From an uncultured Verrucomicrobiae bacterium (GTDB taxonomy: Bacteria > Verrucomicrobiota > Verrucomicrobiia > Palsa-1439), in contig CAWEWF010000014.1 of the NCBI GenBank assembly GCA_963812605.1, forward strand, positions 32,001 through 96,000: 64,000 nucleotides of DNA, given 5' to 3'. The translations under genes were made by a program, and so were the position numbers. The notes below the pieces were generated by a model. That model ran no database searches. It was not told the DNA's origin and worked only from the letters and a program-made list of their open reading frames with translations. Below are positions 1-54,065 of this stretch, piece after piece (position 1 is the first letter of the stretch; every line of letters starts with the position of its first letter).

Positions 1-2056
1 CACCATCCCGAGCAAATGAGCTACTTCAACATGGTTTCCAGCGATACGGCCGAGGTCAAACTCCGCACGTTACAGGATGATGTCCAGAAGGTGGCGGTGC
101 ATTGGCGGGATGGACGCGAACGCGACGTGTGGATGCATCGCAGTGACACCGCGTTTGGTTTTGACTACTGGAGCGCCACGGTCACCGCCGAAACCACAAA
201 CAAGACGGCAGCCTACTACTTCACGCTCATTGATGGCCCGGCGACCAACACCTTTGGGGCGGGCAGTGAGTACCAATGGCGTCCAGTGGTTCAAGGCTGA
301 GTTGATCGATCGGTTCCCGACACCGATGTGGGCGCGCAATGTCGTGTGGTATCAGATTTTTCCTGAACGTTTCCGCAACGGGACAGCGGAGAATGATCCG
401 CCGCACACGTTACCGTGGCGTTGGGATTGGTACAAGCTGGCGCGCGGAGAGAAGCCGGCGGATAACAAGGCGTTCTCGAATGATTGGTATGGGCGCCGGT
501 TCGGGGGCGACCTTCAGGGGGTCATCAGCCAACTACCGTATTTCCGCGATTTGGGAGTGACGGCGCTGTATTTTTGCCCGGTTTTTGAGGCGAGTTCCTA
601 CCACGGTTACGACACGGTCGATTACCGGCACATCTCCCAATACTTCGGCTTTACGAATGACAACGAAAGCGTCATCGCGCATGAGACACTCGACCCAAAG
701 ACGTGGCAATGGACGCCGTCGGACAAGCTCTTCCTGGACTTCGTCAAGGCAGCGCACGCGCAGGGTTTGAAAGTCATTATTGATGGCGTTTTCAACCACA
801 TGGGCAAGGACAGCTTTGCGTTACGCGATGTGCTTACCAATGGAGTGAGTTCCGCGTATGCGGATTGGTTCGAGGTGACAGATTGGGGACCGCCAGTGAA
901 GTACCATTCCTGGGATGGAGGCGGCTGGATGCCGAATTTCCGCAAGGACGCGGAGAACGGGATCGCTTCGGATTCCGCGCGGAAGTATCTGTTTGATATC
1001 ACGCGACGGTGGATGGACCCCAGCGGCAACGGAGACCCATCGGCTGGGGTCGACGGTTGGCGATTGGATGTCGCCGAAGGCGTACCCAGCGCCTTCTGGG
1101 TGGCCTGGCGCAAGCACGTCAAGTCGATCAACCCGCGCGCGTACATCACGGGCGAGGCGTGGGGCGCGGTGCCAAAGCATTTGCAGGGCGACGAGTGGGA
1201 TGCGGTGATGAACTACCAGTTCGCCATGCGGGCCATTCACTATTTCATCGACCAGAAGCGCAAGATTTCCGCCAGTGAGTTTGACCGGCAGCTAAAGGAC
1301 CTGCTGAAAACGTATCCGCTGCAAGCCGACTACGTCATGCAGAATCTTTATGACTCACATGACACCGATCGCCTGGCAAGCATGATCATCAACCCGGACC
1401 GGGATTACGACCAGGGCAATCGTCCCCAGGACGGCGCTCCCTACGATGGCTCGAAGCCGTCGGCCCCCGCGTATCGGGTTTTGAAGCTTATGGCGACGTT
1501 TCAAATGACGTTTCTCGGCGCCCCGATGATCTGGTACGGGGACGAAGTCGGCATGTTTGGCGCGGGTGACCCGACCGACCGCAAGCCGATGCTCTGGCGC
1601 GACCTGGAACCGTACGATAATCCACAAGATGCGGTCATGGCGGATGTGTACGAGCATTACCGTCGCGTGATTGCCATTCGGAATACCTATCCGGCGTTCC
1701 GCAGCGGGGATTTTGAAACGCTGTTGACGGATGATGCGAATGACCTGTACGGCTTCACCCGCACTTATCACGGCGAGGTAGTCGCCGTGATCGTGAACAA
1801 CAGCGACAAGGACCAGATGATCGATCTCAACGTCCCGTTTCCGAATGACAGCCGCATTGTCGATGTGATGGCGGCCGCGCCGGTGGAGTTTTACCGGGCT
1901 TCGCCGCAAAGCCTGAATTTTCCGAACTTTGAGGCCAGCGCGACGATTCGGGCATTGCGGCTCGGACCGGACGCTGGCCCGGTCTACGTTGTGCGCAGTG
2001 GAAAAATCCACGTTGGCATGGCGGGGAAAAGCGCGGCAATCCTGGTGAAACGGTAG
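1..2056 (+). CDS. GH13 alpha-amylase family (neopullulanase/cyclomaltodextrinase-like); 5'-truncated by the window edge; frameshift near 262
   Basis: Motifs WYQIFPERF, GGDLQGV, YHGYD, DGVFNH, DGWRLDV (nucleophile), GEAW (acid/base) and DSHD. Frame 1 is open from base 1 and joins ORF 77..2056. Confidence 0.9.
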
Positions 2057-2074: not shown

Positions 2075-5000
2075 TTACGGCAATACCAGGTGCACCCGGT
2101 AGAATCGTCCCACCACCGCAGTTGTGTCGGTCGTGGACGTTGACGGCCCGGTGGCGGTGATGTCGGGGCCGGCCACATCGGTAAACGCACCGGGTAGCGT
2201 ATCTGTAGACTGCAGGTGATACGTCTTGCCGGAGACACTTTCCCACGTAATGGTGTTGACGTTACCCGTGCGGGAGACACTGGTGATTTGCATCGTCGAA
2301 GCACTGTTCGTAGGGTCCGTGCCGGCCAAGAATTCCTGCAAGTTCGACAGCCCGTCGCCATCTGGGTCGGCGTTGGCCACATTCGGATCCAGCGGATTGA
2401 ATCCGTATTGCAACGACCAGTAATCAGGAATCCCGTCGCCAGCATAACTGTTGGTGCCGTAGGTCACGACGATCGAATTGGCCCCTGAGGTGTTATTGAA
2501 CGGACCATGCACGTGGACGCGTCCGGTGGATGTGTCGTAGTCCGCCGGAGCCGGAACATAGTAGGCGCCGTTGGTGACGACCATGACGGGCGGGCCACCG
2601 GCGGGAATGCGCAAGTACATGTCGTAATTCAGCGCGCCCACCGTCCGCTTGTTGATATCGGCGCGTGTGTTCGATGGGTTCGCGGTGATGGTGATGTCGA
2701 ACCGCTGGCTCTCGAAGAGCATGTTGTTGTAGCTGATCGAACTCCATCCGTTGGGCAGTTTGGGCGCGAAATAACAAGTGTTGTTCGTGGACTGCGGCTT
2801 GTAATCGAGGAACATCATCATCTGGTCAACGAGTGTCGAATGCGATTCCCAGACGTTGGGCCAGGCGGTCTGCAGCCAGAAATTCGGATATTTCTGCAGC
2901 GCCGTGGTTGGCGCAATCTGTTCGGACGCCAGGCCGTTCGGGCCGAGTTTGGCGATGAGTTTATCGAGCATCGCCAGGTTCGTCGTCACGAGCGTGTTGC
3001 CGCCGACGTAATCCTGCCAGCGTGTGTAGTACTCCCCGTACCACGAAGAGGCGAGAAACCAGGGGCTGTGACCGAAGGGAGAGGGCGCCGTGTTCCAGTA
3101 ATTGTCTGAATTGTTGTTGACGTTGTAAACGTAGCGATTGACCAAACCGACAATGCCGGGATAATTCACTGTGTCGCCCTCGACGAGGGTGTCGGTGTGT
3201 CCGCCAGCCGTTTGCCGTCCATGGAGCCATTCCACCACGTTGGTCATGCGGGGGTCCGCCGGCGAGTACGTCTCGTACGGCACCACCAGTCCCAGTTGAC
3301 TGATGTCCGATGGCTCGACCCGATTGTCGATGCGGGCATCCATACCCGATTTAAGATTCACAGCGCGCGAGCGGAATGTGCTCGCCCAGCTATTGCTCCC
3401 GACATACTGGGCGATATTGGCCGCGTCATTTAATCCACGCACCACACTACTGTTGGAGTAAAGGAAGAGGCCAAACGAATCCTCCCAAACATTGTTGCCG
3501 TTCATCAAGTTGAACGTGGGGTCGATATATACATCGGTATTGCTGCAACTATTCTCGCTGCTGGCGTTGGCGCACTGAAACGCGAGATTCCAGAAGTTTG
3601 TCAGGAAGGTCCCATCGCCCGTTGCCAGAAAATGGTAATACAAGCCCCAGGGGATGCTCGCCGTCTCGTCCAGTTGCGGAGACGTCCACACCTTGTAACC
3701 GTCCGTCGTGTACTTCTGGTAGAAGATGCCCAAGCCGCCGTCCACGCAGTCGGTGTCACGGAAAGCGATGTCACGGCACCATTGATAAAAGGCGGCGGCC
3801 TCGTTGGTGTGGCCGGTCCGATCCAGCGTGATCGCCGCATAGACCCCGTCGCGCGGCCAGACGAAGGGATAGGCGCCGTTATGCATGCCGGCGATGATCG
3901 CCCCCGTTTTGGCATCGATGTGCAGGGCCGTCACCAGCAGCGAACGATTGAACAGCGAATTGTACTGCGCGCCCGGCAGGTTGACGGTAACGCCTGCACC
4001 AAGCCAATTGGACCAGTACGCCTGGGTCGTAGCTTGCGCATTCGAGACGTTACTCGAATAGAACCAATCGATCATCGGCCGGCCCCAGAAGTTGTGCGTG
4101 CCCGTGGCGCCCGCAAAATCGTCCCAGGAACCGACAATCATCACATCGACTTCCGTGGGTTGGCCCGGAGGCAGCATAACGCGTTTTCCGATCCAGCCCT
4201 CCTGATTGTCGGTGCTGGTGTGATCGCGCCAGCTTCCATCGGCCATCGCGCCTGCGCCGGTGGTGCTGTTCGTCACGAGTTTCATGACAGTACCGAAGTA
4301 AAGCGAAGTGCTTTTCTGCCACGGGAAGGCAAACGCGGGCGAATACTCGGTGGTGTAACCGTTTGGATCACAGGAATTCGTCTGCACCGGCACGAGGCGA
4401 GAGGTGTTGTCGAAGGCGATCATGGCGTTGTAGTTCGTCCCAACGGCGTTGGTTTCCCAGTACATGGTGTCGTATTCGTTGCCGCCGTTGATGTTAAAGT
4501 TCGCGTCGAAATAGAAGTCGATCGTGTTGGTGGTGGCCTGAAGATTGGTGAGCACAAACCGCTTGACGTAGACGCCGTAGTTGGTGCGCGTCCCATCCGT
4601 CACCACGGGCAGTGCGTTGGTCGTCGGGCAGAAGTCGTATTGTTCCACCAGGATATTATTGCCGCCTGCGGTAAAGAGATTCGTGGTGTAGACGACATTG
4701 TTGTCCGTGACATAGCGCTGCCCGACAGGATTGTAATCCGTGCCGCTGGTGTTTTGCAGCCAGTGAATGCTGTTCGTGCCGCCTTCGATCGTCCCGATAC
4801 CGCCCATGGCGGCGATCAGGTTCATCTGGCCGTTGGCTTCCTGGTCGAGGCTGGGGCAGCTCGGGAACTCTTCCGGACCGCGATAGCCTTCATTGGAAGT
4901 GCCGACTCCATGGCGGTCGCCGACGCTGGGATAATAAATATCGTAGGTGTTTCCGTTCTGGTCGAGCTGCACCGTCATGTATTGGTTGCCGACGATGGCC

Positions 5001-5920
5001 TCTTCCTTCCAGTGATGGATGTTTGTGGCGGGATCGCTCGGATAACCCGCCGTCGCGCCGCCCGGCCAGGGCATGGCGTGGGATGTGTAGCTGTAGTTAT
5101 TTCCCGCGTTGCTGTCCAGGTTCAATGTCAGGGTATCCACGTTGCCGTCGTTCAGCCCGCCGGTCGGCGTGACTGTGGAACTGAACACGTAGTAAGCCAC
5201 CGTCGCGCCGTTGGGCATGGGAGGAATTGGCGCCGAATAGCTCGTGCCTGACCCGGATGCTTCGACAAATGTCGTGCTCGCAAAATTATTCGTCGTCCAG
5301 CGGATGAAGATATGCTCCTCCACCGATTTCGGCGCACTCAGGCCGATGTTCACGGTAACAGTGTCGTTGGTGCGCGGTACCGCAGGAGACTGGCTCAAAC
5401 GGGTGACGGAGACGGGACGCGCTGAGGTTTTCATCACACCGATTACCGCATTATTGCCGCTCGGCGGGTTCAGAGTGCGAAATGAATAGAAGGCGCCATT
5501 TTGCACGGTAATCGTCCCATTGTTCGCGGAGAACCACGTAAATGTCGTGGTGCCGTCGATGCCGGCGGTCGCGCCGCCCCAATTGCTGCCAAACGAGCCG
5601 TCCGCCGCCAACTTGAATTCGTAAGTGCCGTTGGTCACGTCCCCACCCGAGGCGGCGACAAACATGACATTGGTGTACCAATCCATTCCCGAGGGCGTAC
5701 CCGGCGGGGACACTTTATTCATGCGAAACGGGCCGGAGGTATCCGCAGCGTTGAAACTGTCCCACGTACCGGGAAGATTCATCGTGGTCCACGCTGTGGC
5801 GGTCGACGCGGAAAACCCGGTGAGCGCCAGCGCGGCGAGCAGGGCAATGAGAATCCGTCCGGGCCGATCTGCTAAAGCGGTTGAGCAACCGAGGCGAGAA
5901 GCTCGAAATTCTTGCGTCAT
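2075..5920 (-). CDS. Secreted GH15 glucoamylase-like protein with N-terminal CBM/Ig-like modules, a DxDGDG Ca-binding repeat and the shared C-terminal domain
   Basis: Signal peptide; GAIIA...YPFVWPRDG, QLDET and NVWE motifs typical of GH15; DPDGDGLSNLQEFLAGTDP; ends RFYRVHLVLP. Confidence 0.85.
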   Translation of the reverse strand: MTQEFRASRLGCSTALADRPGRILIALLAALALTGFSASTATAWTTMNLPGTWDSFNAADTSGPFRMNKVSPPGTPSGMDWYTNVMFVAASGGDVTNGTYEFKLAADGSFGSNWGGATAGIDGTTTFTWFSANNGTITVQNGAFYSFRTLNPPSGNNAVIGVMKTSARPVSVTRLSQSPAVPRTNDTVTVNIGLSAPKSVEEHIFIRWTTNNFASTTFVEASGSGTSYSAPIPPMPNGATVAYYVFSSTVTPTGGLNDGNVDTLTLNLDSNAGNNYSYTSHAMPWPGGATAGYPSDPATNIHHWKEEAIVGNQYMTVQLDQNGNTYDIYYPSVGDRHGVGTSNEGYRGPEEFPSCPSLDQEANGQMNLIAAMGGIGTIEGGTNSIHWLQNTSGTDYNPVGQRYVTDNNVVYTTNLFTAGGNNILVEQYDFCPTTNALPVVTDGTRTNYGVYVKRFVLTNLQATTNTIDFYFDANFNINGGNEYDTMYWETNAVGTNYNAMIAFDNTSRLVPVQTNSCDPNGYTTEYSPAFAFPWQKSTSLYFGTVMKLVTNSTTGAGAMADGSWRDHTSTDNQEGWIGKRVMLPPGQPTEVDVMIVGSWDDFAGATGTHNFWGRPMIDWFYSSNVSNAQATTQAYWSNWLGAGVTVNLPGAQYNSLFNRSLLVTALHIDAKTGAIIAGMHNGAYPFVWPRDGVYAAITLDRTGHTNEAAAFYQWCRDIAFRDTDCVDGGLGIFYQKYTTDGYKVWTSPQLDETASIPWGLYYHFLATGDGTFLTNFWNLAFQCANASSENSCSNTDVYIDPTFNLMNGNNVWEDSFGLFLYSNSSVVRGLNDAANIAQYVGSNSWASTFRSRAVNLKSGMDARIDNRVEPSDISQLGLVVPYETYSPADPRMTNVVEWLHGRQTAGGHTDTLVEGDTVNYPGIVGLVNRYVYNVNNNSDNYWNTAPSPFGHSPWFLASSWYGEYYTRWQDYVGGNTLVTTNLAMLDKLIAKLGPNGLASEQIAPTTALQKYPNFWLQTAWPNVWESHSTLVDQMMMFLDYKPQSTNNTCYFAPKLPNGWSSISYNNMLFESQRFDITITANPSNTRADINKRTVGALNYDMYLRIPAGGPPVMVVTNGAYYVPAPADYDTSTGRVHVHGPFNNTSGANSIVVTYGTNSYAGDGIPDYWSLQYGFNPLDPNVANADPDGDGLSNLQEFLAGTDPTNSASTMQITSVSRTGNVNTITWESVSGKTYHLQSTDTLPGAFTDVAGPDITATGPSTSTTDTTAVVGRFYRVHLVLP

Positions 5921-43429: not shown

Positions 43430-43545
43430 AGAAAACAATTATAACGATCCGCTTCGACAAACCAAGCGCGTTGATGAACTTGGCAGAATATCTGTATGCG
43501 AGTTCTCTCTTGTTCGCGCCGCCGCAACGTGGTTTGCTTTTCGCG

Positions 43546-45381
43546 ATGCCGACACCCGCGACCATGCAAGCGAATACGCAATCCGACTGGACGGTCATCC
43601 GTCGTCTGCTGGCACTGAGTTGGCGCTATCGCGCGGGCTGCATCAAGGTGTTCATTTACCAGTTGGTCCTGCTCTCGATGGGGCTGGCGGGGCTGGGGTT
43701 GACGGGGCTGGGGATTGATTTTGTTCGCTGGCAAATTCACTCGACAGCGACACCGCCGCACTGGCCGTTCGGGCTGGCGCCGCCAGCGGCGTGGTCGCCG
43801 ATGAAGGTGCTCACGGTCATCGCGGCCATCATGTTCACGTTCGCGATCCTGCGAGCGGTGCTGAACTACGTTTACAGCATCGCCGTGGCCGTGCTTGTGG
43901 AGCGGTACATTGTGGTCGAGATGCGGGCGCAGGTCTATGAGAAACTCCAACGGCTCAGCTTTCGCTTTTATGATGCCAACGAGACCGGCTCGATCATCAA
44001 CCGCGTCACCGGCGACTCGCGCGCGGTCGCGAACTTCGTCAACAACGTGTTGATCCAAAGCATCATCATGGTGTTGTCGCTCGTCGTGTTCCTGTCGTAC
44101 ATGCTGACCATTCATGTAAAGCTCACGCTGGCGTGCCTGGCGGTGATTCCGCTGCTCTGGGTGATCGCCGCTGTCTTCTCGCGTGTCGTCCAGCCCGAAT
44201 ATGTCCGCAATCGCGAGCTGGTGGATCGGATGATTCTGCATGTCGCCGAGACCGCACAGGGAATCCAAACGATCAAGGGTTTCGCCCGCGAACGGGAGCA
44301 GAGCGCCATCTTCGCCGCCAGCAACGAAGCCGTGCGCGCGCAACAGCAGACGATTTTCTGGCGCGTGAGCCTGTTTGTGCCGTCGATCGGGATGCTGACG
44401 CAGGTGAGCTTGTTTGTGCTGCTGATTTACGGCGGGCACCTGGTCATCGTGGGCGAATTGCCGTTGGGCACCGGCATGGTCGTGTTCGCGGGACTCTTGC
44501 AGCAGTTCGCGGCGCAAATCGCGAACATCGCGCAAATCGCCAACACCATCCAGCAGAGCCTCACGGGGGCGCGGCGCGTGTTTGAGGTGCTGGACGCGCC
44601 CATCGAAATCGTCAATCCGCCCAATGCGACCCGGCTGGCGCGCGCCAAGGGCGACGTGCGGTTCGAGAGCGTCAGTTTCGGGTACAACGCCGGGGATGAT
44701 CCGGAGTTGCAAGGGGTGACCTTTGAGGTGCGACCAGGCGAGAGCATCGCCATTCTTGGGCCGACTGGCTCGGGCAAGACAACGTTGTTGAGTTTGATCA
44801 CGCGATTCTATGATCCCCAGCGCGGGCGGGTGCTGGTCGACGGCACCGACGTGCGGCGATTTAATCTCGACGATCTGCGCCGCAACGTGGGGTTGGTGTT
44901 CCAGGAGAGTTTTCTTTTCAGCAACACCGTCGCGGCCAATATCGCGTTCGGGCATCCGGATGCGACACGCGACGAGATCGAGCGGGCGGCGAAGATCGCC
45001 GCCGCGCACGAGTTTATCGTGAACCTGCCCAAGGGCTACGACACGCTGCTCGGCGAAGGCGGCAAGGATTTGTCGGGCGGGCAGCGCCAGCGGCTGGCCA
45101 TCGCGCGCGCGTTGTTGCTCGATCCCGCGATCCTGTTGCTCGACGACCCGACGGCAGCGGTCGATCCCGAGACGGAAAAGGAGATTCTCGAAGCGATTGA
45201 GAATGCGATGCGCGGGCGCACCACGTTCATGGTGGCCAACCGCATCAGCACGTTGCGGCGCGCCGACCGCATCCTCGTGCTGGAGGACGGACGGATCGTA
45301 CAGGTCGGCACGCACGAGGAGCTGGTTCGCATTGATGGGCCGTATCGGCGCACGACGGAATTGCAGTTTGCCACCTCATGA
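43546..45381 (+). CDS. ABC exporter subunit (TMD+NBD)
   Basis: GPTGSGKT, LSGGQRQR, LLLDD (degenerate Walker B). Confidence 0.92.
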   Translation: MPTPATMQANTQSDWTVIRRLLALSWRYRAGCIKVFIYQLVLLSMGLAGLGLTGLGIDFVRWQIHSTATPPHWPFGLAPPAAWSPMKVLTVIAAIMFTFAILRAVLNYVYSIAVAVLVERYIVVEMRAQVYEKLQRLSFRFYDANETGSIINRVTGDSRAVANFVNNVLIQSIIMVLSLVVFLSYMLTIHVKLTLACLAVIPLLWVIAAVFSRVVQPEYVRNRELVDRMILHVAETAQGIQTIKGFAREREQSAIFAASNEAVRAQQQTIFWRVSLFVPSIGMLTQVSLFVLLIYGGHLVIVGELPLGTGMVVFAGLLQQFAAQIANIAQIANTIQQSLTGARRVFEVLDAPIEIVNPPNATRLARAKGDVRFESVSFGYNAGDDPELQGVTFEVRPGESIAILGPTGSGKTTLLSLITRFYDPQRGRVLVDGTDVRRFNLDDLRRNVGLVFQESFLFSNTVAANIAFGHPDATRDEIERAAKIAAAHEFIVNLPKGYDTLLGEGGKDLSGGQRQRLAIARALLLDPAILLLDDPTAAVDPETEKEILEAIENAMRGRTTFMVANRISTLRRADRILVLEDGRIVQVGTHEELVRIDGPYRRTTELQFATS

Positions 45382-47207
45382 AAGCGGCCCTGACACAAGT
45401 GCGACAGGAAGACCTGGACGAGTTGAACCTGCGTCCGCTGGAAATGAACTTGATCTGGCGGATGTTCCGGTACACGCAGGCGCACGCGCGCAAACGGAAT
45501 TGGTTGTTCACGCTCGTGATTGTGCGGTCGATTCAATTGCCGATGCTGGCGTGGGCCATCGGCGCGGTGATCAACGGGCCGATTGCCCGGCACGATTCGC
45601 GCGGCGTCATGTGGGGTGCGGTCGGATTCCTGGCGTTCGCGGCAGTGACGCAGTTCTGCTTCCACTTTCGCCAGCGGCTGGCGCTGGAGTTGGGCGAGTC
45701 GGTTCTCCAGGATTTGCGACGCGACATTTTCCAGCATTTGCTGCGGATGCCGATGAGTTTCTACAACCGCACGAAAATCGGGCGCATCATCAGCCGTTAC
45801 ACGTCCGATGCCGAGGCCATGCGGGTCGGCTGGCAGGACGTGTTTTTCATCACGGCGGTCCAGGCAGGACAGATGTTTTTTTCGGCGCTGCTGATGTTGT
45901 GGTACGACCGGGTGCTGTTTCTGGTCGTACTGGCCATGGCACCGGTGTTGGGGGCCATGAATTATCATTTCCGCCGCACGCTGAGCAACGCGAACCGCAA
46001 GGTGCAGGAGAGCTGGAGTCGCGTGACGGCGACCATCGCGGAATCGGTCACGGGAATTCGCGTGACGCAGGGATTCGTGCGGCAGGATGTGAACGCGGGC
46101 CTGTTTACGGACCTGCTGATGGACCATTCGGTTTACAATCTCGGTGTGGCGCGGGCGACGGGTGTGTTTCTGCCGATGCTGGAATTGAACAGCCAGACGT
46201 TCACCGCGGCGCTGCTGGTGCTGGGCGGCTATCGGGTGTTGAGCCCGACGATTCATATGGACGTGGGCAACCTGATCCAGTTCTTTTTTCTCGCCAACCT
46301 GTTTTTCAGTTCCATTCAGCCGCTGGGCAACATGTACAACCAGGCGCTGGCGGCGATGGCGGGGGCGGAGCGCGTTTTCCGTCTGCTCGACACCAAGCCT
46401 GATTGGGAGGAACCGCCGACGGTGCGCGAGTTGCCGCGCATCCGGGGACGCGTCGAGTTTCGCGATGTCAGCTTCGGTTACGTCCCCGATCGGCTGGCGC
46501 TGGACGAAATGAATTTCATCGCTGAACCCGGGCAGACTATCGCGCTCGTCGGTCACACGGGCAGCGGCAAGAGTTCCATCGTCAATCTGATCACAAAATT
46601 CTATCTGCCGGGGGAAGGCGCTGCGCTGATTGACGGGTTCGATACGCGTGATATCCAGGGCGACTCACTGCATCGGCAAATGGGTATCGTCAGCCAGCAG
46701 AATTTCCTGTTTAGCGGCACGGTGATGGATAACATCCGCTTTGGCCGGCCCGCCGCGACCGACGAGGAAGTTGTGGATGCCGTCCGCAAACTGGATTTCC
46801 TCGACGTGATCGGTTCGCTCTCGGCGGGATTCGCGACGGCGGTGGGGGAACGCGGCACGAACCTCTCGCTTGGCCAGCGCCAGCTTATTTGTTTTGCGCG
46901 CGCGATGCTGGCCGACCCGCGCATCTTGATTCTCGATGAGGCCACGAGTTCCGTGGACGCCATGACCGAAGCGCGCATCCAGAAGGCGCTTGTAAGGTTG
47001 TTGCAAGGCCGCACCAGTTTCGTCGTCGCCCACCGCCTCAGCACGATCCGCCATGCCGACCTGGTTCTCGTGCTGAGCCACGGAAAAATCGTGGAACGCG
47101 GCACGCACACGCAGTTGCTGGCGGCGAACGGCACTTATGCGGAATTGTACCGGCAATTCATCCGCGCGACGGGGACGACGCCAAGGCAGACGGTAACAGG
47201 TGTGTAA
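45378..47207 (+). CDS. ABC exporter subunit (TMD+NBD), heterodimer partner
   Basis: GHTGSGKS, LSLGQRQ, ILDEATS, AHRLST; ATGA overlap with the previous gene. Confidence 0.92.
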   Translation: MKAALTQVRQEDLDELNLRPLEMNLIWRMFRYTQAHARKRNWLFTLVIVRSIQLPMLAWAIGAVINGPIARHDSRGVMWGAVGFLAFAAVTQFCFHFRQRLALELGESVLQDLRRDIFQHLLRMPMSFYNRTKIGRIISRYTSDAEAMRVGWQDVFFITAVQAGQMFFSALLMLWYDRVLFLVVLAMAPVLGAMNYHFRRTLSNANRKVQESWSRVTATIAESVTGIRVTQGFVRQDVNAGLFTDLLMDHSVYNLGVARATGVFLPMLELNSQTFTAALLVLGGYRVLSPTIHMDVGNLIQFFFLANLFFSSIQPLGNMYNQALAAMAGAERVFRLLDTKPDWEEPPTVRELPRIRGRVEFRDVSFGYVPDRLALDEMNFIAEPGQTIALVGHTGSGKSSIVNLITKFYLPGEGAALIDGFDTRDIQGDSLHRQMGIVSQQNFLFSGTVMDNIRFGRPAATDEEVVDAVRKLDFLDVIGSLSAGFATAVGERGTNLSLGQRQLICFARAMLADPRILILDEATSSVDAMTEARIQKALVRLLQGRTSFVVAHRLSTIRHADLVLVLSHGKIVERGTHTQLLAANGTYAELYRQFIRATGTTPRQTVTGV

Positions 47208-47364
47208 ATTATAGGGCGTGGACTCCTTCGACCACGAAGCCACGAAGGACACGAAGATTTATGGATAGCATTATCCATAGCCGAGGGTGGCGAGGAGGGA
47301 AACGGGCGGCGGAACTGACGAAAGCGGCTTGTGAATTGTAAAGCGGTGACACTCTAAACTTCGC

Positions 47365-48216
47365 TCAACCGGAAATATGAGCGACTTCCTTCCGTATGTC
47401 TTCGCCAGCGGCCTTAATTCCGTGCGGTATGTCGATCCAGATTATACCCTGAATATCTGAGGGTAGTTCAATAGGTCCCTTTCGTAGCGCAATGACTCGG
47501 CCAGTCTTTCTCCCCATTTGGGCGTAGAAGAATCCAAGCTCGAAGACCACGTTCTGTCGCGCTCTCCGCTTGTCGTCGTCAGTTGCGAGACTAACACCCG
47601 AATCGTCCGGTGTCAGAAGAACGAAGACGCAGTCAATGCGAGACGCGAATTCTTCAAATTTTTCAATGATGGTCTTGCCCCGACTTGGTTGCTCGCGGAG
47701 CACAACTGGTTCTTGCCACTTCAGCGTATTCTGGAGGTAGTCCTTAAGTTCGGTTAGTGTTGCTTCGTCATGCCCGTGAACGATGAATGCTTTCGGAGCC
47801 GGAATGGTCGATAAAACCCCGATCTTTTCGAGGGCCCGAAGTAGAGAATGCGGGCCTTCATCCTTGAATATGAAGGGGATTCCCTGTTCGGACGCCCATT
47901 CGCTCGCCTCGCCCCCCACGATTCCCGACGAAAGCAAGATGAGGGGCATCTTATGGCCGCGATTTTTGACTTCTCGGCACAGTGCGACGCCAGAGAAGAA
48001 ACCTGCCCGTGCTGATTCCGGTGAAATCCCCGATTCCGCGGGATCATTGGGCAGCATCACATCCGAAATTACGCAACCGAAACCTTCGAGAGGCATATGC
48101 AGCGCCTGCTGCACACTTCCAGCGACGACACTTTCAAAGCCGTTATCGGACAAGAGTTCTGTAAGTCGGATGGCGTAATAGTGGTCGTCTTCAACGATCA
48201 GGATTTTCATACGCAT
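47365..48216 (-). CDS. Receiver domain fused to a TIR-like domain (CAP12/PycTIR type)
   Basis: REC: ILIVEDD, ISDVMLP, LLSS, FIFK. TIR: AFIVHGHD, TIIEKFE, VFVLLTPDD, RARQNVVFELGFF, ELPSDIQG. Confidence 0.88.
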   Translation of the reverse strand: MRMKILIVEDDHYYAIRLTELLSDNGFESVVAGSVQQALHMPLEGFGCVISDVMLPNDPAESGISPESARAGFFSGVALCREVKNRGHKMPLILLSSGIVGGEASEWASEQGIPFIFKDEGPHSLLRALEKIGVLSTIPAPKAFIVHGHDEATLTELKDYLQNTLKWQEPVVLREQPSRGKTIIEKFEEFASRIDCVFVLLTPDDSGVSLATDDDKRRARQNVVFELGFFYAQMGRKTGRVIALRKGPIELPSDIQGIIWIDIPHGIKAAGEDIRKEVAHISG

Positions 48217-48217
48217 T

Positions 48218-48634
48218 TTAGAAAGACATTCTTCCAGTTGCTTTCGATTCAATTAACTTCCTCGCCGTGTCTAATGGTGTCTCCCCTTTCCTCAGGTATA
48301 AAATGTTCTGCTTCTTTAGGTCTTCGATCTTCTCCGCATCAGCTATGACCGATAAGCAGATGATCGCGACCCCTCGCCATTGCTGCCGGATCTTACGTAC
48401 AAAGTGGAATCCTGCGGAAGATGAATCGACTCCTGGGAATCCATCACCTGCAGGCATCATTATATCAGTCACGACGACATCGATATGTTGGTGCTGAAGA
48501 ATGTCCCATCCATCTGTCACATTCGTTTTCGAAATGCAATTGTAGCCTCTGGATTCCAAGGAAAGTCGCAATGCCTCACTAAGCCACGGTTCATCGTCGA
48601 CAAAAAGGATAGTATACTTTGCATTGTCATTCAT
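48218..48634 (-). CDS. Single-domain response regulator
   Basis: ILFVDDE, VTDIMMP, ICLSV, YLRK. Confidence 0.88.
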   Translation of the reverse strand: MNDNAKYTILFVDDEPWLSEALRLSLESRGYNCISKTNVTDGWDILQHQHIDVVVTDIMMPAGDGFPGVDSSSAGFHFVRKIRQQWRGVAIICLSVIADAEKIEDLKKQNILYLRKGETPLDTARKLIESKATGRMSF

Positions 48635-49401
48635 GCCATTCGGCTCCGGGGAAAAACAAGCGTAAACTGGGAGGTCTTTCCATTGGTATCGAGTGTCACT
48701 CTGCCCTCGTGAAGTTGCATCACACGCGTCGCCAAGTAGAGACCAATGCCTGTTCCTGCCGGGACTCTCTGTTTGGCAGCCGCACCGCGAACGCCCCGCT
48801 CGAATATCTTTTCCCTTTCTGCTCCGCTTATCGGCATGCCTACACTGGTTACCGAAACCCCAACACCATCCAACTTTTCGGCGCGAACGGTGATTGCAGT
48901 CCTGGCGTCTGCATATTTTACGGCATTCTCCAGGAGGTTGGATATAGCCTGAGCAACCAAGTTCTTCTCTGCCCGTACCTTCCGAGTATCCAAGATGTCC
49001 TTGAATGAGTCGTTGTCGACAATAATATTTTTCTCAACGTCGAAAGCTTGGGGCTGAAAATCATTGGCGAGGTTGATTGCCAGCAGCATCAGGTCAATGG
49101 GTACTTGGTTTCGCATTTGTCCAAGCTGTTCGTCGGCTTCAAGGTTCGACATCAGAGCGAAGTTCTTAATTAAGTGAACCAGAATTGTCGCTTGGGAATA
49201 CACAGAGCGAAGAAGATTTCCTTTGCGAGGCACCGGAATGCTTTCATCCTTGAGCGCTTCAATGCTCCACTTGATGGCCCCTAGCGGCGCGGTCAACTGG
49301 TGAGCAACATTCTGGAGATACATCCTGCTTAGGTCTTTGGAGGATTGAAGTTGTTTTTTTAGGTCTTCGACCTGTTTGCGGAGCTCTTCGATTTCACTCA
49401 T
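48631..49401 (-). CDS. Cytoplasmic histidine kinase without a sensor domain
   Basis: Short coiled coil, H-box AHQLTAPL, N-box NLLENAVKY, F-box IFERG, G2 GTGIGL; AAGGA upstream of the ATG and an in-frame stop further upstream. Confidence 0.88.
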   Translation of the reverse strand: MSEIEELRKQVEDLKKQLQSSKDLSRMYLQNVAHQLTAPLGAIKWSIEALKDESIPVPRKGNLLRSVYSQATILVHLIKNFALMSNLEADEQLGQMRNQVPIDLMLLAINLANDFQPQAFDVEKNIIVDNDSFKDILDTRKVRAEKNLVAQAISNLLENAVKYADARTAITVRAEKLDGVGVSVTSVGMPISGAEREKIFERGVRGAAAKQRVPAGTGIGLYLATRVMQLHEGRVTLDTNGKTSQFTLVFPRSRMA

Positions 49402-49757
49402 AGGAAGTTCCTTAAACTGGATGCTTCTTCACTCGAATCTCGCCCGACACTCGCCTCAGCAACAGCACGGTGCTGCATGCTGGAGTCTACCAAGCGTTTC
49501 GCCGTTCGAGCAAGCCTGGCGAGTATGGAGTTGCGGCAAAGGATCTAGTATTGGTTATCGGTTTACCCTCTTTTCGGTCAAATCGACCTCAAAACGCCAA
49601 TGTTTACGAGCATTTCGTAGAAAAGCTTCCAAACCTTCCAAAGCTTCCAGAGTGCACGCATGCGATTTTGGGCGTTGGGGTAGAGTTGGCATGTGAGTTG
49701 TATGAAGAAGGTTTCCAGTCGCGGTATGACCGAGAGGACTGCCCACAACAACCAGAC

Positions 49758-49781
49758 GGCGCGCGGGACGCACGCCCTACA
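49758..49781 (-). repeat. GTAG-type REP
   Basis: Reverse complement TGTAGGGCGTGCGTCCCGCGCGCC; a related TAGGGCGTG lies at 47212-47220. Confidence 0.6.
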
Positions 49782-49807
49782 ATCGGACCCCAGGAAAGGA
49801 TGTAGTT

Positions 49808-50749
49808 ATGATTCCCAGTGATCTAGTCCCCGCAGCAGAGTCAGCAGAAAACAGGCGGGACGCCTGTTCAGCGAAGATGTTGGCGGCGAATCGGAGGAAT
49901 GCTCGCAGATCCACGGGGCCGCGCACGGCGGAAGGGAAGGCGGCTTCGCGGATGAATGCGGTGAAACATGGAATCCTGTCATCGGAGGTGGTGGTGCGGG
50001 GGTTGCGGATCCAGGAGCGGGAGGATGAGTTCCGGGTGTTGCGCGAACGGTGCTGGAAGAGCCTGGCGCCGGTGGGGCCGGTGGAGGAAATGTTGGTGGA
50101 CAAGATCGTGACAGCGCAATGGCGGTTGCGGCGGGCGTTGCTGGCGGAAACGGGGGAGATCGTTCTGAGCGTGGACGGCGGGCGCTGGGAGCGGTCGAGG
50201 CGGGACCCGATTCCGCTGGTGACGTTTTTGGATGAATTCCATGACGCGTCGGTGGCGATGACCAAGTCGACGCAGGGATTGGAATACCTGAGACATATCC
50301 TGAAGAAAGTCCGCGAGGGTTTGGAACTGGACGGAGAATTGACGGAGAAGACGTGCGAGTGGGTGCGGAGGCGATTCATGAACGAACCAAATGCGATGAC
50401 GCAGGCGCTGGAGGAGTATCGCGCGGAGTTCCTGGCGAATGCGGAGGGGTTGAGTGCGGAGGTGCTGAAGGATCGGCATCGGGTGGCCGTGGAGCGGTAC
50501 ATCGAGTTGAAATTGATCGGCTACGCCGAGTTGAGCGGTGAGCGGAAGGAGCGGGAAGACAAGGAGGAGACGGCGCGGCAGGCGGCGAATGTGTTGCCGT
50601 CGACGGAGGTGCTGGAGAAGATTTTGCGGTATGAGAGCGCGCTGGAGCGGCAGTTGTATCGGGCGATGAACCAGCTTGAGAGGCTGCAACGACGACGGGA
50701 AGGGGAGGATGTTCCCCCACCAGTAACGATGCAGTTATCGCGGGGATGA
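49808..50749 (+). CDS. Conserved hypothetical protein (ANRRNA..STGPRT.EGK family)
   Basis: AANRRNARRSTGPRTAEGKAASRMNAVKHG...LRYESALERQLYRAM. Confidence 0.8.
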   Translation: MIPSDLVPAAESAENRRDACSAKMLAANRRNARRSTGPRTAEGKAASRMNAVKHGILSSEVVVRGLRIQEREDEFRVLRERCWKSLAPVGPVEEMLVDKIVTAQWRLRRALLAETGEIVLSVDGGRWERSRRDPIPLVTFLDEFHDASVAMTKSTQGLEYLRHILKKVREGLELDGELTEKTCEWVRRRFMNEPNAMTQALEEYRAEFLANAEGLSAEVLKDRHRVAVERYIELKLIGYAELSGERKEREDKEETARQAANVLPSTEVLEKILRYESALERQLYRAMNQLERLQRRREGEDVPPPVTMQLSRG

Positions 50750-50833
50750 CGGGGCTTGAAAACATGTGTTTCTGCGAAACGAACCCATTTTGGGGGCGTA
50801 CCGATGAGGTTTGGGAGAGTTCGCCTGCTTTTG

Positions 50834-51079
50834 CTACAGGCGCTTTTTGGCGAAGGATCGGCCTGATGCGGTTTTGAGGTAACGCTCAAAGTCCAAGGCC
50901 GATTGGCGATGGGTAAACGCAATGCAAGTCTTGATACGCCAGGGACGAAACGCTCTCGTGTGAATGGACTTTCCGGAGTTGTGCTCGGCAAGTCGCGCCT
51001 TGAAGTCTTCAGTGAAGCCGGCATAGAAGCGGGTTGGGTCTTTTTCGCTGGCGAGGATGTAGACGTAGTAGAATTTCAT
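50834..51079 (-). CDS. Small GIY-YIG nuclease
   Basis: YVYIL...FYAG.T.D...RL..HN.G...FERYLKT. Confidence 0.9.
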   Translation of the reverse strand: MKFYYVYILASEKDPTRFYAGFTEDFKARLAEHNSGKSIHTRAFRPWRIKTCIAFTHRQSALDFERYLKTASGRSFAKKRL

Positions 51080-51120
51080 GGCTTGCGCGGCTGCCCGCCT
51101 TCGCTTCGCTACGACGCGGC

Positions 51121-51143
51121 AATTTTCGCTCCGAGCGAAAATT
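51121..51143. terminator. Hairpin directly downstream of the tRNA 3' end
   Basis: AATTTTCGCT-CCG-AGCGAAAATT. Confidence 0.5.
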
Positions 51144-51171
51144 GGCGGAGGGGGCGAGATTCGAACTCGCG
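51143..51171 (-). other. 3' fragment of a tRNA (probably Ser), att site of an integrated element
   Basis: Reverse complement CGCGAGTTCGAATCTCGCCCCCTCCGCCA: T-arm, acceptor 3' strand, discriminator G and CCA. The 5' half is absent and the integrase starts 120 bp away. Confidence 0.8.
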
Positions 51172-51290
51172 AGGCCAACATGACCGCACACAATGCAACT
51201 TTACTAGGAAATATGACACTATAGAACGCTATTGACAGGGGTGGACGTTATGATAATCTGTTATGACAAAACGAACAAAGATTATCCCAT

Positions 51291-52485
51291 ATGGCCAGCC
51301 TACACAAAGATCCGCAGGGGCGAAGCAAGTTTTGGTACTGCGCTTTCAGCGAATGGGACGCGGACGAACAACGTTGGCAGCGCCGGTTCCGGTCCACCAA
51401 GACTGCCAACAAAGAACAGGCCCTTCAAATCTGCCGGACATGGGAGCAAGCGGCCAAGACTGCCCAGACAGGCCGACTGACACCCGACCGCGCGCGGGAA
51501 ATCCTCGCCAACGGGCTGGAAGGAATTTTTCTCGCCAGCAATCGCGAGCCCATGAAGCGGTACACGGTCCGGGAGTGGGGGCAGCAATGGCTCGACAGCA
51601 AGTTGATCGAGAACACCCCGCGCACCCATGAGCGATATGCCGGCATCATCACCCGGTTTTATGAGCACCTCGGCGCGAAGGCTGACAGGGACATTGCCGC
51701 TGTGACGGCATCGGAGATCACCGCCTTTCGGGACAAGCTGGCAAAAGAGCTTTCGATCAATACCGCCAACCTTGCCGTGAAGACTTTGCGTGTGTGTTTC
51801 GGTGCCGCCTACAGCAATGACCTTATTACCAGCAATACCGCCGCGAAGGTAAAGAAGTTAAAACTGCCGCGCATGGGGCACCGCCGCGAGTTTAAGCCGG
51901 CGGAAATCCGCCTTCTACTGCAGGCCGCCGGTGACAGTGAATGGCGCGGCATGATTCTGACCGCACTCTATTCCGGGCAACGGCTCGGTGATGTGTCACG
52001 GTTGCGGTGGGGGGACGTGCGGCTGGACACCCGCGAGATCGTCTTTCGCGTCAGTAAAACCAACGAAGTTCTGCCGTTGCCGATGGCGCGCCCGCTGTCC
52101 GACTATCTCGAAAGCTTCCCGTCGAGCGACGACGCCAACAGTTTCCTTTTTCCGAAAGCTGCCGCTTGTACCCGCACCGGGTATGTTGAGCAATCAGTTT
52201 TACAAGGTCATGGAACAAGCCGGGCTCGTACCGCAGCGGAAGAACGTCGACACTGGTAAAGGCCACCGCGAGCGTCGCACAGTCAGTTCCTTGTCCTTCC
52301 ACAGTTTGCGTCATAGCTGTGTGACGTTTCTCAAAGCCGCCGGAGTCAGCGATGCCATCGCGCAAGCCATCGCCGGCCATGCGTCTAGTGCCGTCTCGCG
52401 GATTTACACCCACCTTGACGTGGAAACCCTACGCGGCGCTGTCGCCAAACTGCCGGACGTGACGAAGGATGACGCAAAGCGTTGA
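51291..52485 (+). CDS. Tyrosine integrase; frameshift near 52180
   Basis: SGQRLGD (R), VSKT (K), FHSLRH, AGH, RIYTH across ORFs 51291..52259 and 51988..52485. Confidence 0.9.
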
Positions 52486-52593: not shown

Positions 52594-53938
52594 ATGGGTG
52601 CAAGCTAACAAACAGGCTCTGCGGGTGACTTTCGATAGTCGTTTGAAGCTGGAGTTTCACGGTTCCAAGGTCACCTCCGATGCGGGCTTGCTGGCTTACC
52701 GGGAACTGGATGAGGCGCTGGGACTGACCGCCATGGTGAGTGACCTGCTGAATGATTGGCGCACGGGAAAGAACACGCAACACTCGATGGTGGCGCTGCA
52801 TGCGGCAGTCGATTTTCAGCCGTCTGGCTGGATACGAGGACACCAATGACGCCGAACGGCTCTCGGTTGATCCCACCATGCGGCATGTGGTTGGCGGGCG
52901 AGCCACGGAACGCACGGCGGCTTCCACCAGCCAGATGGGTCGCTTCGAGACCGAGGTGTTGACGCAGCCGCGGAATCTGGCGGAGTTGACGAAGCTGTCG
53001 GGAATATGGATTGAGCGGCTGCGGGAACGCCAGCCGATGCGGGAACTGATCCTGGACATGGATAGTTCGGTGAGCGAAACCTATGGGGAGCAGGAAGGCA
53101 CGGCCTACAACGGGCATTTCGGCTGCACCTGCTACCACCCGCTGTTTTGCTTCAATCAGTTTGGCGATGTGGAAGCAGTCCCTGTTGCGGGAAGGCAACG
53201 TCCATAGCGCCAAGGATTGGCTGAGCGTGCTGGAACCGGTGGTGGCACGCTATCGCGGCCAGAAGTTGCCGCTCTATTTCCGGGCGGATGCCGCCTTTGC
53301 CAACCCGGAGATTTATGAGTATCTGGAAGCCGAAGGTTACGGGTATGCCATCCGGCTGCCAGCCAATGATGTGTTGCTGCGGGAGATCGCGCCGCTGCTG
53401 ACCCGTCCAGTGGGGCGTCCCTCGAACGCGCCGGTGTCTGGTATGCGGACTTTCAGTATCAGGCGAAGAGTTGGGATCGCGCCCGTCGGGTGGTGGCCAA
53501 GGTGGAATGGCACAAGGGGCGAATTGTTCCCTCGCGTCGGGTTCATCGTGACCAATCTGAGCCGGCCAGCCAAACGGGTGGTGCGGTTCTACAACCAGCG
53601 GGGGACGGCGGAGCAGTGGATCAAGGAAGGCAAGAACGCGGTGAAATGGACGCGGCTGTCCTGCCACGACTTTGTGGACAACCAGGTGCGGCTGCAACTG
53701 TTCGTGCTGGCGTACAACCTGGGCAACTTCCTGCGTCAGGCGGTGCTGCCGCAGGTCGGTGCGTCACTGGACGTTGACGACGTTGCGGGAGAAACTGATC
53801 AAGATCGGGGCGAAGGTCGTGCGCCATTCCCGGCAGGTGATCTTCCAGATGGCGGAGGTGGCGGTTCCACGAGAGTTGTTCCGGGCTATTCTGGAAAGGA
53901 TTGGATGGCTGAGATTGCCCATGCCGCTGCCCGGCTGA
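52594..53938 (+). pseudogene. IS1380 DDE transposase with multiple frameshifts (could be sequencing errors)
   Basis: VTSDAGLL, GYEDTND, LDMDSS, YHPL, LREGN, RADAAF, YNQRGTAEQWIKEGK, LREKLIKIGA spread over several frames. Confidence 0.85.
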
Positions 53939-54065
53939 TGCTCGCTGGGCGGCAAATGCGGGAAAGCAAAATGGCTGACGGCGATGCTTTGTCTGCGTTC
54001 GGTCGAAAATCGGTGCAGAACGCAATTTAGAGCCGAAGGCATCGTCTCCGGAGCCTAGAAAAGGC

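Follow-up and report, generated by a model that had tools for sequence, protein, structure and literature searches.

A histidine kinase, receiver and receiver-TIR cassette from an uncultured Verrucomicrobiae bacterium as a candidate Detocs-like defence module

Can a TIR effector be held in check by two-component phosphotransfer, and would such a module constitute a new type of defence? The question is raised by three adjoining genes in a 64,000-nt stretch of DNA (the window) from an uncultured Verrucomicrobiae bacterium (assembly GCA_963812605.1, contig CAWEWF010000014.1). Their products are a histidine kinase, a receiver that stands alone and a second receiver joined to a TIR domain (REC-TIR). 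A sequence-only reading of this DNA had described a TIR effector gated by phosphotransfer, in which the lone receiver might serve as phosphate sink, and had proposed it as a new system. The anatomy so described is right and the logic remains the best-supported reading, but the status of a new system does not stand. The relevant precedent is Detocs, in which a sensor kinase (DtcA) is accompanied by two receivers: DtcB, which stands alone and is proposed to buffer phosphate, and DtcC, a receiver-effector whose effector part is interchangeable (Rousset et al., bioRxiv 10.1101/2023.01.24.525353). On balance, and with no great confidence, we favour the view that the trio is a Detocs-like abortive-infection module, built from two-component parts and spread by horizontal transfer.

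Organization of the locus

The trio, at 47365-49401, comprises three intact, tightly packed minus-strand genes (Table 1) which are predicted to be co-transcribed. The kinase and lone receiver genes share an ATGA overlap (48631-48634), read directly in the sequence. The stop codon of the lone receiver, TAA at 48218-48220, is separated by the single base 48217 from the ATG at 48216 that can open the REC-TIR gene. Homologues of REC-TIR start at the equivalent of this ATG or of the next, at 48210. In 500-nt windows spanning 47250-49749 the GC content of the trio segment is 0.48-0.54; on either side it rises to 0.62 (46750-47249) and 0.63 (49750-50249). The tight coupling and the AT-rich character of the trio relative to its flanks, both reported in the sequence-only reading, are therefore confirmed.

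Table 1. Features of the trio locus, in window coordinates
Feature	Position	Strand	Remarks
Histidine kinase gene	48631-49401	-	256 aa, ORF listing
His34 codon, predicted phospho-accepting His	49300-49302	-	His34 invariant in family alignments
Stand-alone receiver gene	48218-48634	-	138 aa, ORF listing
Asp57 codon, predicted phospho-acceptor of lone receiver	48464-48466	-	Alignment of 30 lone receivers
REC-TIR gene	47365-48252	-	295 aa if TTG start; 283 aa if ATG at 48216
Receiver domain of REC-TIR	47812-48216	-	Residues 1-135; Response_reg 3.4e-8 at 5-129 (Pfam)
TIR domain, CAP12/Pycsar clade	47365-47811	-	Residues 136-283 and stop codon
Glu226 codon, predicted catalytic Glu	47539-47541	-	Invariant in alignments
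Low-GC segment with trio	47208-49800		Between end of conserved ABC-transporter gene and unrelated 313-aa ORF

A search for attachment sites around the low-GC segment gave no convincing pair of flanking direct repeats, and a scan for promoters and terminators returned no more sites than shuffled sequence. A look-up of sequencing runs listed no RNA run and one DNA run with a 0.05 share of words, which bears on neither expression nor habitat. The 313-aa ORF (49808-50749) was considered as a further member of the trio and rejected, since none of the fetched loci contains it; Pfam, PADLOC and NCBIfam gave no match to it.

Domains and active-site residues

The kinase is compact. About 27 residues, a helix of that length, precede the DHp domain (Pfam HisKA, 2.2e-6, residues 28-89), which is followed by the CA domain (HATPase_c, 3e-16). 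A hydrophobic stretch was not seen, and Pfam places neither TPR repeats nor any other domain ahead of HisKA. Relatives at E<=1e-30 fall, among 29 representatives, into 25 of no more than 290 aa (39-69% identity) and four long proteins (29-31%). No close longer relative was found, only generic kinases appearing among the long matches, and longer kinases with TPR repeats are 24-28% identical to the trio kinase and carry a canonical H-E box. A sensor domain is absent from every close relative, so there is no visible input to the kinase.

The N and G2 boxes of the CA domain are kept. The G1 box is S-x-G-x-P, or S/N-x-G-I-P, where solved kinases have D-x-G-x-G; the solved sensor kinase 7zp0 shares this shape, with N-x-G-x-P.

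The H-box is also odd, lacking both the kinase acid and the phosphatase Thr/Asn, a feature that the sequence-only reading overlooked. It reads H-Q-L-T-A, with Gln35 in place of Glu/Asp and Ala38 in place of Thr/Asn, and all 28 family kinases carry H-Q-L-(T/V)-A. Glu or Asp follows the histidine in 33 of the 34 HisKA domains of the genome, the trio kinase being the sole exception. In the canonical bifunctional HisKA motif, H-E/D-x-x-T/N, to which the trio kinase does not conform, kinase activity depends on the acid and phosphatase activity on the Thr/Asn in the enzymes studied; E372Q abolishes the kinase activity of CrdS, and the phenotypes of NtrB E140Q are consistent with a kinase-negative protein (PMC3510030). 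Given the H-Q box and these mutants, a simple model in which the kinase fires on infection may not hold, or may hold only if another residue compensates.

Could the protein then be a relay component rather than a true kinase? An attenuated 'kinase' might use His34 to shuttle phosphate from receiver to histidine to receiver, drawing on a small molecule (acetyl phosphate, for instance) or an unlinked kinase, with the same TIR output. The invariant Gln at H+1 and Ala at H+4, the CrdS and NtrB precedents, the isolation of this H-box within its own genome and the constant presence of two receivers are all in keeping with such a relay. However, the N and G2 boxes are retained in 28 of 28 kinases and the G1 variant has its precedent in 7zp0, which argues for selection on nucleotide binding, and neither a separate Hpt nor a donor gene is conserved nearby. 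We judge the relay improbable.

The lone receiver (Response_reg, 8.1e-15, Pfam) keeps Asp13/Asp14, Asp57, Ser95 and Lys116 in all 30 aligned sequences. Across 22 sequences of the REC-TIR receiver Glu9/Asp10/Asp11, Asp52 and Lys118 are invariant and Ser96 is at least 90% conserved. With acidic pocket, phospho-Asp, Ser/Thr and Lys in place, these alignments identify both as predicted phospho-accepting receivers, not pseudo-receivers. The predicted fold of the REC-TIR receiver matches receiver domains with a TM score of about 0.8 on target. An insertion of about 17 aa follows its phospho-Asp in the β3-α3 loop, and its HMM alignment with solved receivers is broken at residues 55-71. In the lone receiver about 10 extra residues follow the phospho-Asp, so that the two share an insertion at the same loop. 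A specific paralogy of the two was considered and rejected, their similarity (23% identity, E 4e-4) being no better than generic. No longer or fused relatives of the lone receiver were found at E<=1e-5, which is weak evidence. By analogy with DtcB we predict that it serves as a phosphate sink.

The C-terminal part of REC-TIR matches PF10137 (CAP12-PCTIR_TIR, 9.9e-32, residues 143-263) with 109.9 bits against a cut-off of 24.7 bits. PADLOC profiles for PDC-S35 (5.4e-46, covering profile positions 118-250 of 264), the CBASS TIR effector (8.4e-13) and PycTIR (5.2e-9) are also matched. In two solved Cap12 chains the residue aligned with Glu226 is the glutamate of a VVFEFG motif; one of these proteins, 9lmq, is matched at 1e-5 and there the partner residue is Glu86. 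This glutamate is catalytic in the ElSTING TIR-STING protein, and Cap12 cleaves NAD+ upon ligand-driven filament formation (PMC12421889). We take 9lmq to be the TIR-STING of the latter study because its residue numbers match and its release date fits. A Foldseek search that used the complete REC-TIR model yielded receiver proteins only, and the TIR domain was therefore modelled alone (pLDDT 83.6). The top PDB matches were then the TIR-STING structures 9lmq and 7un8 (TMq 0.65), followed by other TIR domains.

The profile search suggested by the sequence-only reading thus recovered HisKA, HATPase_c, two Response_reg domains and PF10137, and Pfam placed no DNA-binding domain in the trio proteins, in agreement with the missing DNA-binding output noted there. 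Its account of a kinase lacking sensor and transmembrane segments, of an atypical G1 box, of two receivers with intact phospho-acceptor sites and of a TIR domain with an intact catalytic Glu is likewise upheld by the domain matches and alignments.

Distribution and genomic setting

Is the trio a conserved unit, and does it keep the company of defence genes? Both points had been proposed as a neighbourhood check. Complete trios number 28 among 48 fetched REC-TIR loci, and the trio is conserved in two gene orders. The order seen in the window, kinase, receiver, REC-TIR, occurs at 16 loci, which represent every locus of 53-60% identity with enough flanking sequence; at two more a contig edge cuts the trio and the lone receiver is present. 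The order REC-TIR, kinase, receiver is found at 12, with four others cut off after the kinase. Those hosts that carry a name come from at least five phyla: Acidobacteriota, Verrucomicrobiota, Nitrospirota, Planctomycetota and Desulfobacterota.

Within the genus, the TIR part is present in two of 17 other genomes. The site is empty in two congeners (G006 and G012) whose ABC gene shows 88% nucleotide identity. The cassette looks horizontally mobile, and its distribution is patchy and island-like. One congener holds a degraded copy.

Defence neighbours occur at some loci. PADLOC was run on the neighbours after 40 of 102 ORFs already named as housekeeping by Pfam had been left out; matches are limited to nine of 62 ORFs, in five of 17 trio loci, and none of the eight window neighbours scanned has a credible defence match. 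At one locus (L038) capH (5.6e-21) and capP (2.5e-57) lie directly upstream of the REC-TIR gene, with HsdM, E1-E2 and a NucC-like nuclease also present. Elsewhere the trio adjoins PDC-S37/Hhe (L006) or TIR-TM (L026), or lies near PDC-S70 and HicAB (L017), BrnT (L004) or HigB (L013); transposase, integrase or ICE genes occur at L003 and L027. Of the PADLOC matches, the one to mad8, which falls on a TrwB-like ORF, probably reflects cross-matching. The ORFs scanned include no cyclase, and no fourth gene is conserved beside the trio in the 17 loci examined.

Such mixed surroundings invite the suggestion that the trio has no phage role and is a stress or dormancy circuit, in which the phosphorylated regulator would lower NAD+ or bind a nucleotide to slow growth. 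Several trios lie amid signalling or housekeeping genes (L007, with GGDEF, STAS and HD; L009, with a LuxR regulator and a peptidase; and L033), the eight window neighbours scanned give no credible defence match, and phyla of soil and sediment that are rich in two-component systems commonly carry the cassette. The island-like distribution with its variable surrounding gene content, the degraded copy mentioned above and the capH and capP regulators upstream at L038 argue the other way, as do the Detocs precedent and the TIR clade itself, whose other known members belong to CBASS, Pycsar and PDC-S35 and which often turns up on viral contigs. A non-defence role is in our view unlikely.

Detocs, the proposed mechanism and other TIR systems

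The sequence-only reading knew of no characterised system with this architecture. Detocs, as its preprint describes it, has the same logic of kinase, receiver and receiver-effector. Because the architecture already has a name, what can be claimed is a variant of Detocs and no longer a new system. Shared features are the three-gene operon of histidine kinase, lone receiver and receiver-effector without a DNA-binding domain, an arrangement present in the 28 complete trios, and the modular, cell-killing effector fused to a receiver. When assayed in E. coli, Detocs defence requires the kinase histidine, the DtcC aspartate and the effector site, and a DtcB aspartate mutant is toxic (bioRxiv 10.1101/2023.01.24.525353).

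The differences are several. The effectors that we found named for Detocs are PNP (80%), REase, TOPRIM, TM and α/β-hydrolase; TIR is not one of them, although the supplement may list TIR variants. DtcA carries N-terminal TPR repeats and its histidine at position 645, whereas the trio kinase has 256 residues and no sensor, and an H-Q box in place of the canonical H-E/D. The second gene order, with REC-TIR first, is a further departure. Neither the kinase nor the receivers gave a Detocs-named match in PADLOC 2.0.0 or NCBIfam, libraries which may hold no such models. The trio looks, by its architecture, like a TIR-armed variant of Detocs. The TIR effector and the kinase without a sensor domain would be what is new relative to Detocs. 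In the portions of the literature covered by our search, no description of a kinase, receiver and receiver-TIR operon was found.

From what is established here, namely the architecture, the conserved catalytic and phospho-acceptor residues, the two-order trio across phyla, the patchy distribution and some defence neighbours, we infer NADase activity, its dependence on phosphorylation, the sink, the trigger and its nature, and a role against phages. The cytoplasmic kinase, with DHp and CA domains only, would phosphorylate His34, from which the phosphoryl group could pass to either receiver. In the resting cell the stand-alone receiver would soak up this flux, and a separate sink may be needed because the kinase is devoid of the HisKA phosphatase motif. 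On infection, increased flux or a failing sink would lead to phosphorylation of Asp52 in REC-TIR. The receivers would then associate, allowing the TIR domains to build a composite active site around Glu226 and hydrolyse NAD+, the loss of which would stop both cell and phage. Confirmation of this scheme would add a TIR NADase to the effectors of Detocs-type phosphotransfer immunity, with a reach into the Acidobacteriota, Planctomycetota, Verrucomicrobiota and Nitrospirota, phyla in which defence is poorly charted. The minimal kinase, with its natural 'kinase-minus, phosphatase-minus' H-box, offers a compact test case for sensing without a sensor domain and for avoiding autoimmunity.

One version of the mechanism, which we hold to be a minor possibility, removes sensing from the kinase altogether. 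A weak, phosphatase-less kinase would let phosphate trickle, and the lone receiver would drain it as an antitoxin does a toxin. Infection would be sensed when the sink is lost or saturated, be it by host shut-off, by turnover of the sink or by a phage protein binding it, to name examples, and flux would divert to REC-TIR. If true, this would be a two-component system rewired with toxin-antitoxin logic, in which the invariant H-Q-x-x-A box would set a slow, one-way flux. Receivers of this kind are familiar from chemotaxis, where a second, output-less receiver acts as a phosphate sink, competing for the phosphoryl groups of one kinase. The likeness lies in that output-less second receiver; the chemotaxis sinks belong to CheA-type pathways serving motility, not a cell-killing effector.

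Two further groups of proteins share the TIR domain of the trio. CBASS Cap12 (TIR-STING or TIR-SAVED) and Pycsar PycTIR have in common with it PF10137, the TIR fold and the motif R-x-N-V-V-F-E-x-G, which contains the catalytic Glu. They are activated when a fused STING, SAVED or cNMP domain binds a cyclic nucleotide made by the cyclase of the operon, whereas the trio has a phospho-accepting receiver as its fused domain and a histidine kinase as partner. Confirmation of the Detocs-like reading would provide a third switch for this clade, beside cyclic nucleotides and direct sensing. The comparison also bears on whether a phosphorylated REC-TIR, instead of depleting NAD+, might make a nucleotide messenger for an effector encoded elsewhere, in the manner of Thoeris. 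Bacterial TIR domains can make signalling molecules (bioRxiv 10.64898/2025.12.03.692087). However, the closest solved relatives by sequence and fold are the NAD+-degrading Cap12 TIR-STING proteins, and the 17 trio loci examined show no conserved fourth gene of the kind that reads the TIR product in a Thoeris-type system; we regard a messenger as highly improbable.

The second group is PDC-S35, a PADLOC candidate comprising single-gene TIR proteins, which are the best-scoring and nearest TIR relatives and dominate the 80 matches on viral contigs. They differ from REC-TIR in standing alone without a kinase and in having helical N-terminal halves, not receivers. The idea that these N-termini are pseudo-receivers was rejected, since in alignment they prove to be helical and unrelated. 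A single supported cluster of 57 rows in the tree (SH-aLRT 98) unites 42 of 43 REC-TIR rows with 15 labelled non-receiver; eight of those 15 are truncated or contig-edge copies.

Gene layout and putative insertion site

The three ORFs of the trio, a histidine kinase (HK), a lone receiver (REC) and a receiver-TIR fusion (REC-TIR), are intact. The sequence-only reading had described them as tightly coupled and AT-rich, and both points hold. Read directly, the kinase stop and receiver start overlap in ATGA (48631-48634), the lone-receiver TAA and REC-TIR ATG are one base apart (48217), and the GC content is 0.48-0.54 in the trio region (47250-49749) against 0.62-0.63 on both flanks. Pfam matched every domain which that reading expected: HisKA and HATPase_c in the kinase, Response_reg alone in the second protein and Response_reg with PF10137, the CAP12/Pycsar TIR domain (9.9e-32), in the third.

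The window and two same-genus genomes are 88% identical in nucleotides as far as 47173-47194; after this they diverge, and similarity returns at a small GIY-YIG gene and the adjacent tRNA fragment. ARAGORN did not call the fragment, nor any intact tRNA within the window, and Rfam gave only a weak tmRNA-3′-like match here. Together with the broken integrase and transposase it looks like what is left of one end of an island that had inserted into a tRNA. A paralogue of the 313-aa ORF, 69% identical, lies at another place on this contig (G000, the window's own genome, C14:216275-217108), and in other loci the ORF showed no linkage to the trio.

Features of the window and genes near trio loci elsewhere (L-numbers, fetched relative loci)
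Location	Feature	Position	Strand	Remarks
Window	ABC-transporter gene pair	43471-47207		precedes trio
Window	REC-TIR ORF	47365-48216	-	283 aa from ATG; alternative TTG at 48252 gives 295 aa
Window	Lone receiver ORF	48218-48634	-	138 aa
Window	Histidine kinase ORF	48631-49401	-	256 aa
Window	313-aa ORF	49808-50749	+	no family match; adjoins trio segment
Window	GIY-YIG gene	50830-51081		small
Window	tRNA-Ser(GGA) 3′ fragment	51084-51174	-	tRNA intact in three same-genus genomes
Window	Tyrosine integrase	51291-52485	+	frameshifted; beyond tRNA fragment
Window	DDE transposase (DDE_Tnp_1_4)	52598-54030	+	three pieces/frames; beyond tRNA fragment
L038	capH (5.6e-21), capP (2.5e-57)	3848-5073	+	168 nt upstream of type-2 REC-TIR gene
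L006	PDC-S37/Hhe			
L026	TIR-TM			
L017	PDC-S70, HicAB			
L004	BrnT			
L013	HigB			
L003	IS21, integrase			
L027	ArdC, serine recombinase, TrwB			

The REC-TIR effector

An alignment of 22 full-length homologues shows that E9/D10/D11, D52, S96 and K118 of the receiver are kept, as are the TIR motifs FIVHGHD and R-Q-N-V-x-F-E-x-G; the receiver pocket had been judged intact from the outset. E226 is invariant here and in a further set of 28 TIR domains sampling all subgroups. In two solved Cap12 chains that match the TIR part, the residue aligned to E226 is the Glu of the VVFEFG motif, number 86 in 9lmq. In ElSTING, E86 is reported to be the catalytic residue and NAD+ cleavage is lost in E86A (mBio 2025, PMC12421889). 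E226 is then probably the intact catalytic Glu previously claimed. Compared with the PDB, a TIR-only AlphaFold model (pLDDT 83.6) is closest in fold to TIR-STING 9lmq and 7un8 (TMq 0.65); further TIR domains rank next. In PADLOC the closest match is PDC-S35, a candidate of single-gene TIR proteins (5.4e-46), then CBASS TIR effectors (8.4e-13) and PycTIR (5.2e-9). That the TIR domain produces a signal is highly improbable.

Directly after the phospho-Asp of the REC-TIR receiver (48061-48063 region) there is an insertion of about 17 aa, where the HMM match to solved receivers is split, and the same loop of the lone receiver has a shorter one of about 10 aa (48464-48466 region). Such insertions may hinder small phosphodonors from reaching the site or determine which kinase is accepted.

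In fusions at L044, L045, L047, L049, L055 (349-568 aa) and L050/L052/L053 (213 aa) a TIR domain 51-61% identical to that of the window follows N-terminal regions other than a receiver, none of them matched by Pfam. It appears that the effector module is exchanged between unannotated putative sensor domains. Viral-contig relatives (L087-L165, among the best 80 of 141) are nearly all PDC-S35-like proteins of 250-300 aa, with a helical N-terminus and the same TIR clade. On viral contig L086 an orphan REC-TIR lies immediately after a type II restriction-modification cluster.

Occurrence and neighbours

Relatives came from three collections. Genome contigs gave 5 loci; in metagenome contigs 428 of the 595 candidate stretches were confirmed, of which the best 80 were used, and in viral contigs 141 of the 310, again with the best 80 used. 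Searches with the window's proteins (phmmer), Pfam and a count script served to classify them. Conservation of the trio, on which the sequence-only reading depended, is evident: among the matches listed, 48 loci have REC-TIR or a REC-TIR-like gene, and the trio is complete in the window's order (HK-REC-RECTIR, type 1) in 16 and as RECTIR-HK-REC (type 2), at about 40% identity, in 12. Two further type-1 loci, truncated by the end of the contig, still include the lone receiver, and four of type 2 are cut after the kinase. The other 14 are without the trio's kinase family; five are on contigs too short for judgement, six have no kinase at REC-TIR (L031, L035, L040, L054, L060, L086) and in three a different kinase adjoins it (L023, L029, L042). 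The latter pair REC-TIR with canonical-looking histidine kinases and have no lone receiver (the L042 G1 box is D-N-G-V-G), so the effector has been coupled to kinases of more than one family.

Among the named hosts are Terriglobales, Pyrinomonadaceae, Bryobacteraceae, Verrucomicrobiia, Thermodesulfovibrionales, Planctomycetota and Desulfobaccales. In a quick IQ-TREE analysis of 142 TIR rows, all 17 type-1 rows and four truncated copies form one cluster (SH-aLRT 99), and 42 of 43 REC-TIR rows fall inside a 57-row cluster (SH-aLRT 98) that also contains TIRs with other, unannotated N-termini. Of 41 related genomes, the window's own included, 4 gave a match to the TIR part; within the genus, 2 of the 17 others did. 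One of these two matches, locus L168 (same-genus genome G001, 233-1476, minus strand), is apparently a degraded type-2 copy; its kinase ORF keeps the H-Q box in just 122 aa and the N-terminal part of its REC-TIR ORF has no visible acidic pocket.

Around 17 trio loci, 102 ORFs were searched with Pfam and 62 with PADLOC, leaving out 40 Pfam-named housekeeping ORFs; neither showed a fourth gene that recurs with the trio. Genes of mobile elements, toxin-antitoxin pairs or defence are often nearby, and the L038 island also contains HsdM, E1-E2 and a NucC-like DUF6602 nuclease. PADLOC matched 9 of the 62 ORFs at 5 of the 17 loci, a raw count without background rate, and one of the nine is probably a cross-hit. 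Pfam and PADLOC found no defence genes near the remaining loci or in the window. The neighbours are suggestive support for a defence role and not proof. A stress circuit without such a role is unlikely.

The kinase and a likeness to Detocs

Ahead of its H-box the kinase has only about 27 residues, whose charges follow a heptad-like pattern; it has no hydrophobic segment and no domains besides HisKA and HATPase_c, as expected of the short coiled coil without transmembrane or sensor domain proposed earlier. Among 1.84 billion representatives, 29 relatives were found at E<=1e-30, 25 of them of 290 aa or less; the four long ones are just 29-31% identical. Longer relatives, sought by word matching, were generic kinases only (22-41% identity). 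Since close relatives are short and longer ones distant or generic, those bearing TPR repeats having a canonical H-E box, sensor absence is a family-wide trait.

The G1 box, rightly called atypical, is S-x-G-I-P in type 1 and N-x-G-I-P in type 2, a shape with precedent in the solved kinase 7zp0. The H-box is H-Q-L-(T/V)-A-P-L in 28 of 28 family kinases. Glu or Asp follows the His in 33 of 34 HisKA matches of the window's genome, the trio kinase being the sole exception. In studied HisKA kinases the acid after the His is needed for kinase activity, as E372Q abolished it in CrdS and E140Q of NtrB gave phenotypes in keeping with a kinase-negative protein, and a Thr/Asn four residues after the His is needed for phosphatase activity (PMC3510030); both positions are replaced in the trio kinase. 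The Gln argues for a kinase that may be slow or otherwise unusual, and the missing phosphatase residue would fit a design requiring a separate sink. A phosphate relay, the 'kinase' serving mainly as a phosphate shuttle, is rather improbable; both the N box and the G2 box are retained.

The available parts of the Detocs preprint (bioRxiv 10.1101/2023.01.24.525353) describe an anti-phage system of a kinase with TPR repeats (DtcA), a stand-alone receiver (DtcB) and a receiver-effector (DtcC), the effector being PNP in 80% of operons, with REase, TOPRIM, TM and alpha/beta-hydrolase also named. By that description, not by sequence, the trio has the same three-part logic, and the earlier statement that no characterised system has such an architecture does not stand. 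A kinase/receiver/receiver-TIR operon was not described in the literature searched, the Detocs supplement lying outside it. The trio would then be known logic with differing parts: a TIR effector, a minimal kinase as opposed to the TPR-bearing DtcA, an unusual H-box and a gene order that comes in two forms. Its breadth of occurrence and unusual kinase make it worth testing.

On balance we lean towards an abortive-infection module resembling Detocs. A TIR NADase of CAP12/Pycsar type would be turned on by phosphotransfer in place of a cyclic nucleotide, while noise would be buffered by the lone receiver. The sink role first suggested for this receiver agrees with the one proposed in print for DtcB, as far as the same excerpts go. 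These report that His, Asp and effector mutants of Detocs lose defence and that a DtcB Asp mutant is toxic, dependent on the effector. A flux-guard with toxin-antitoxin logic, loss of the sink being the signal, seems doubtful.
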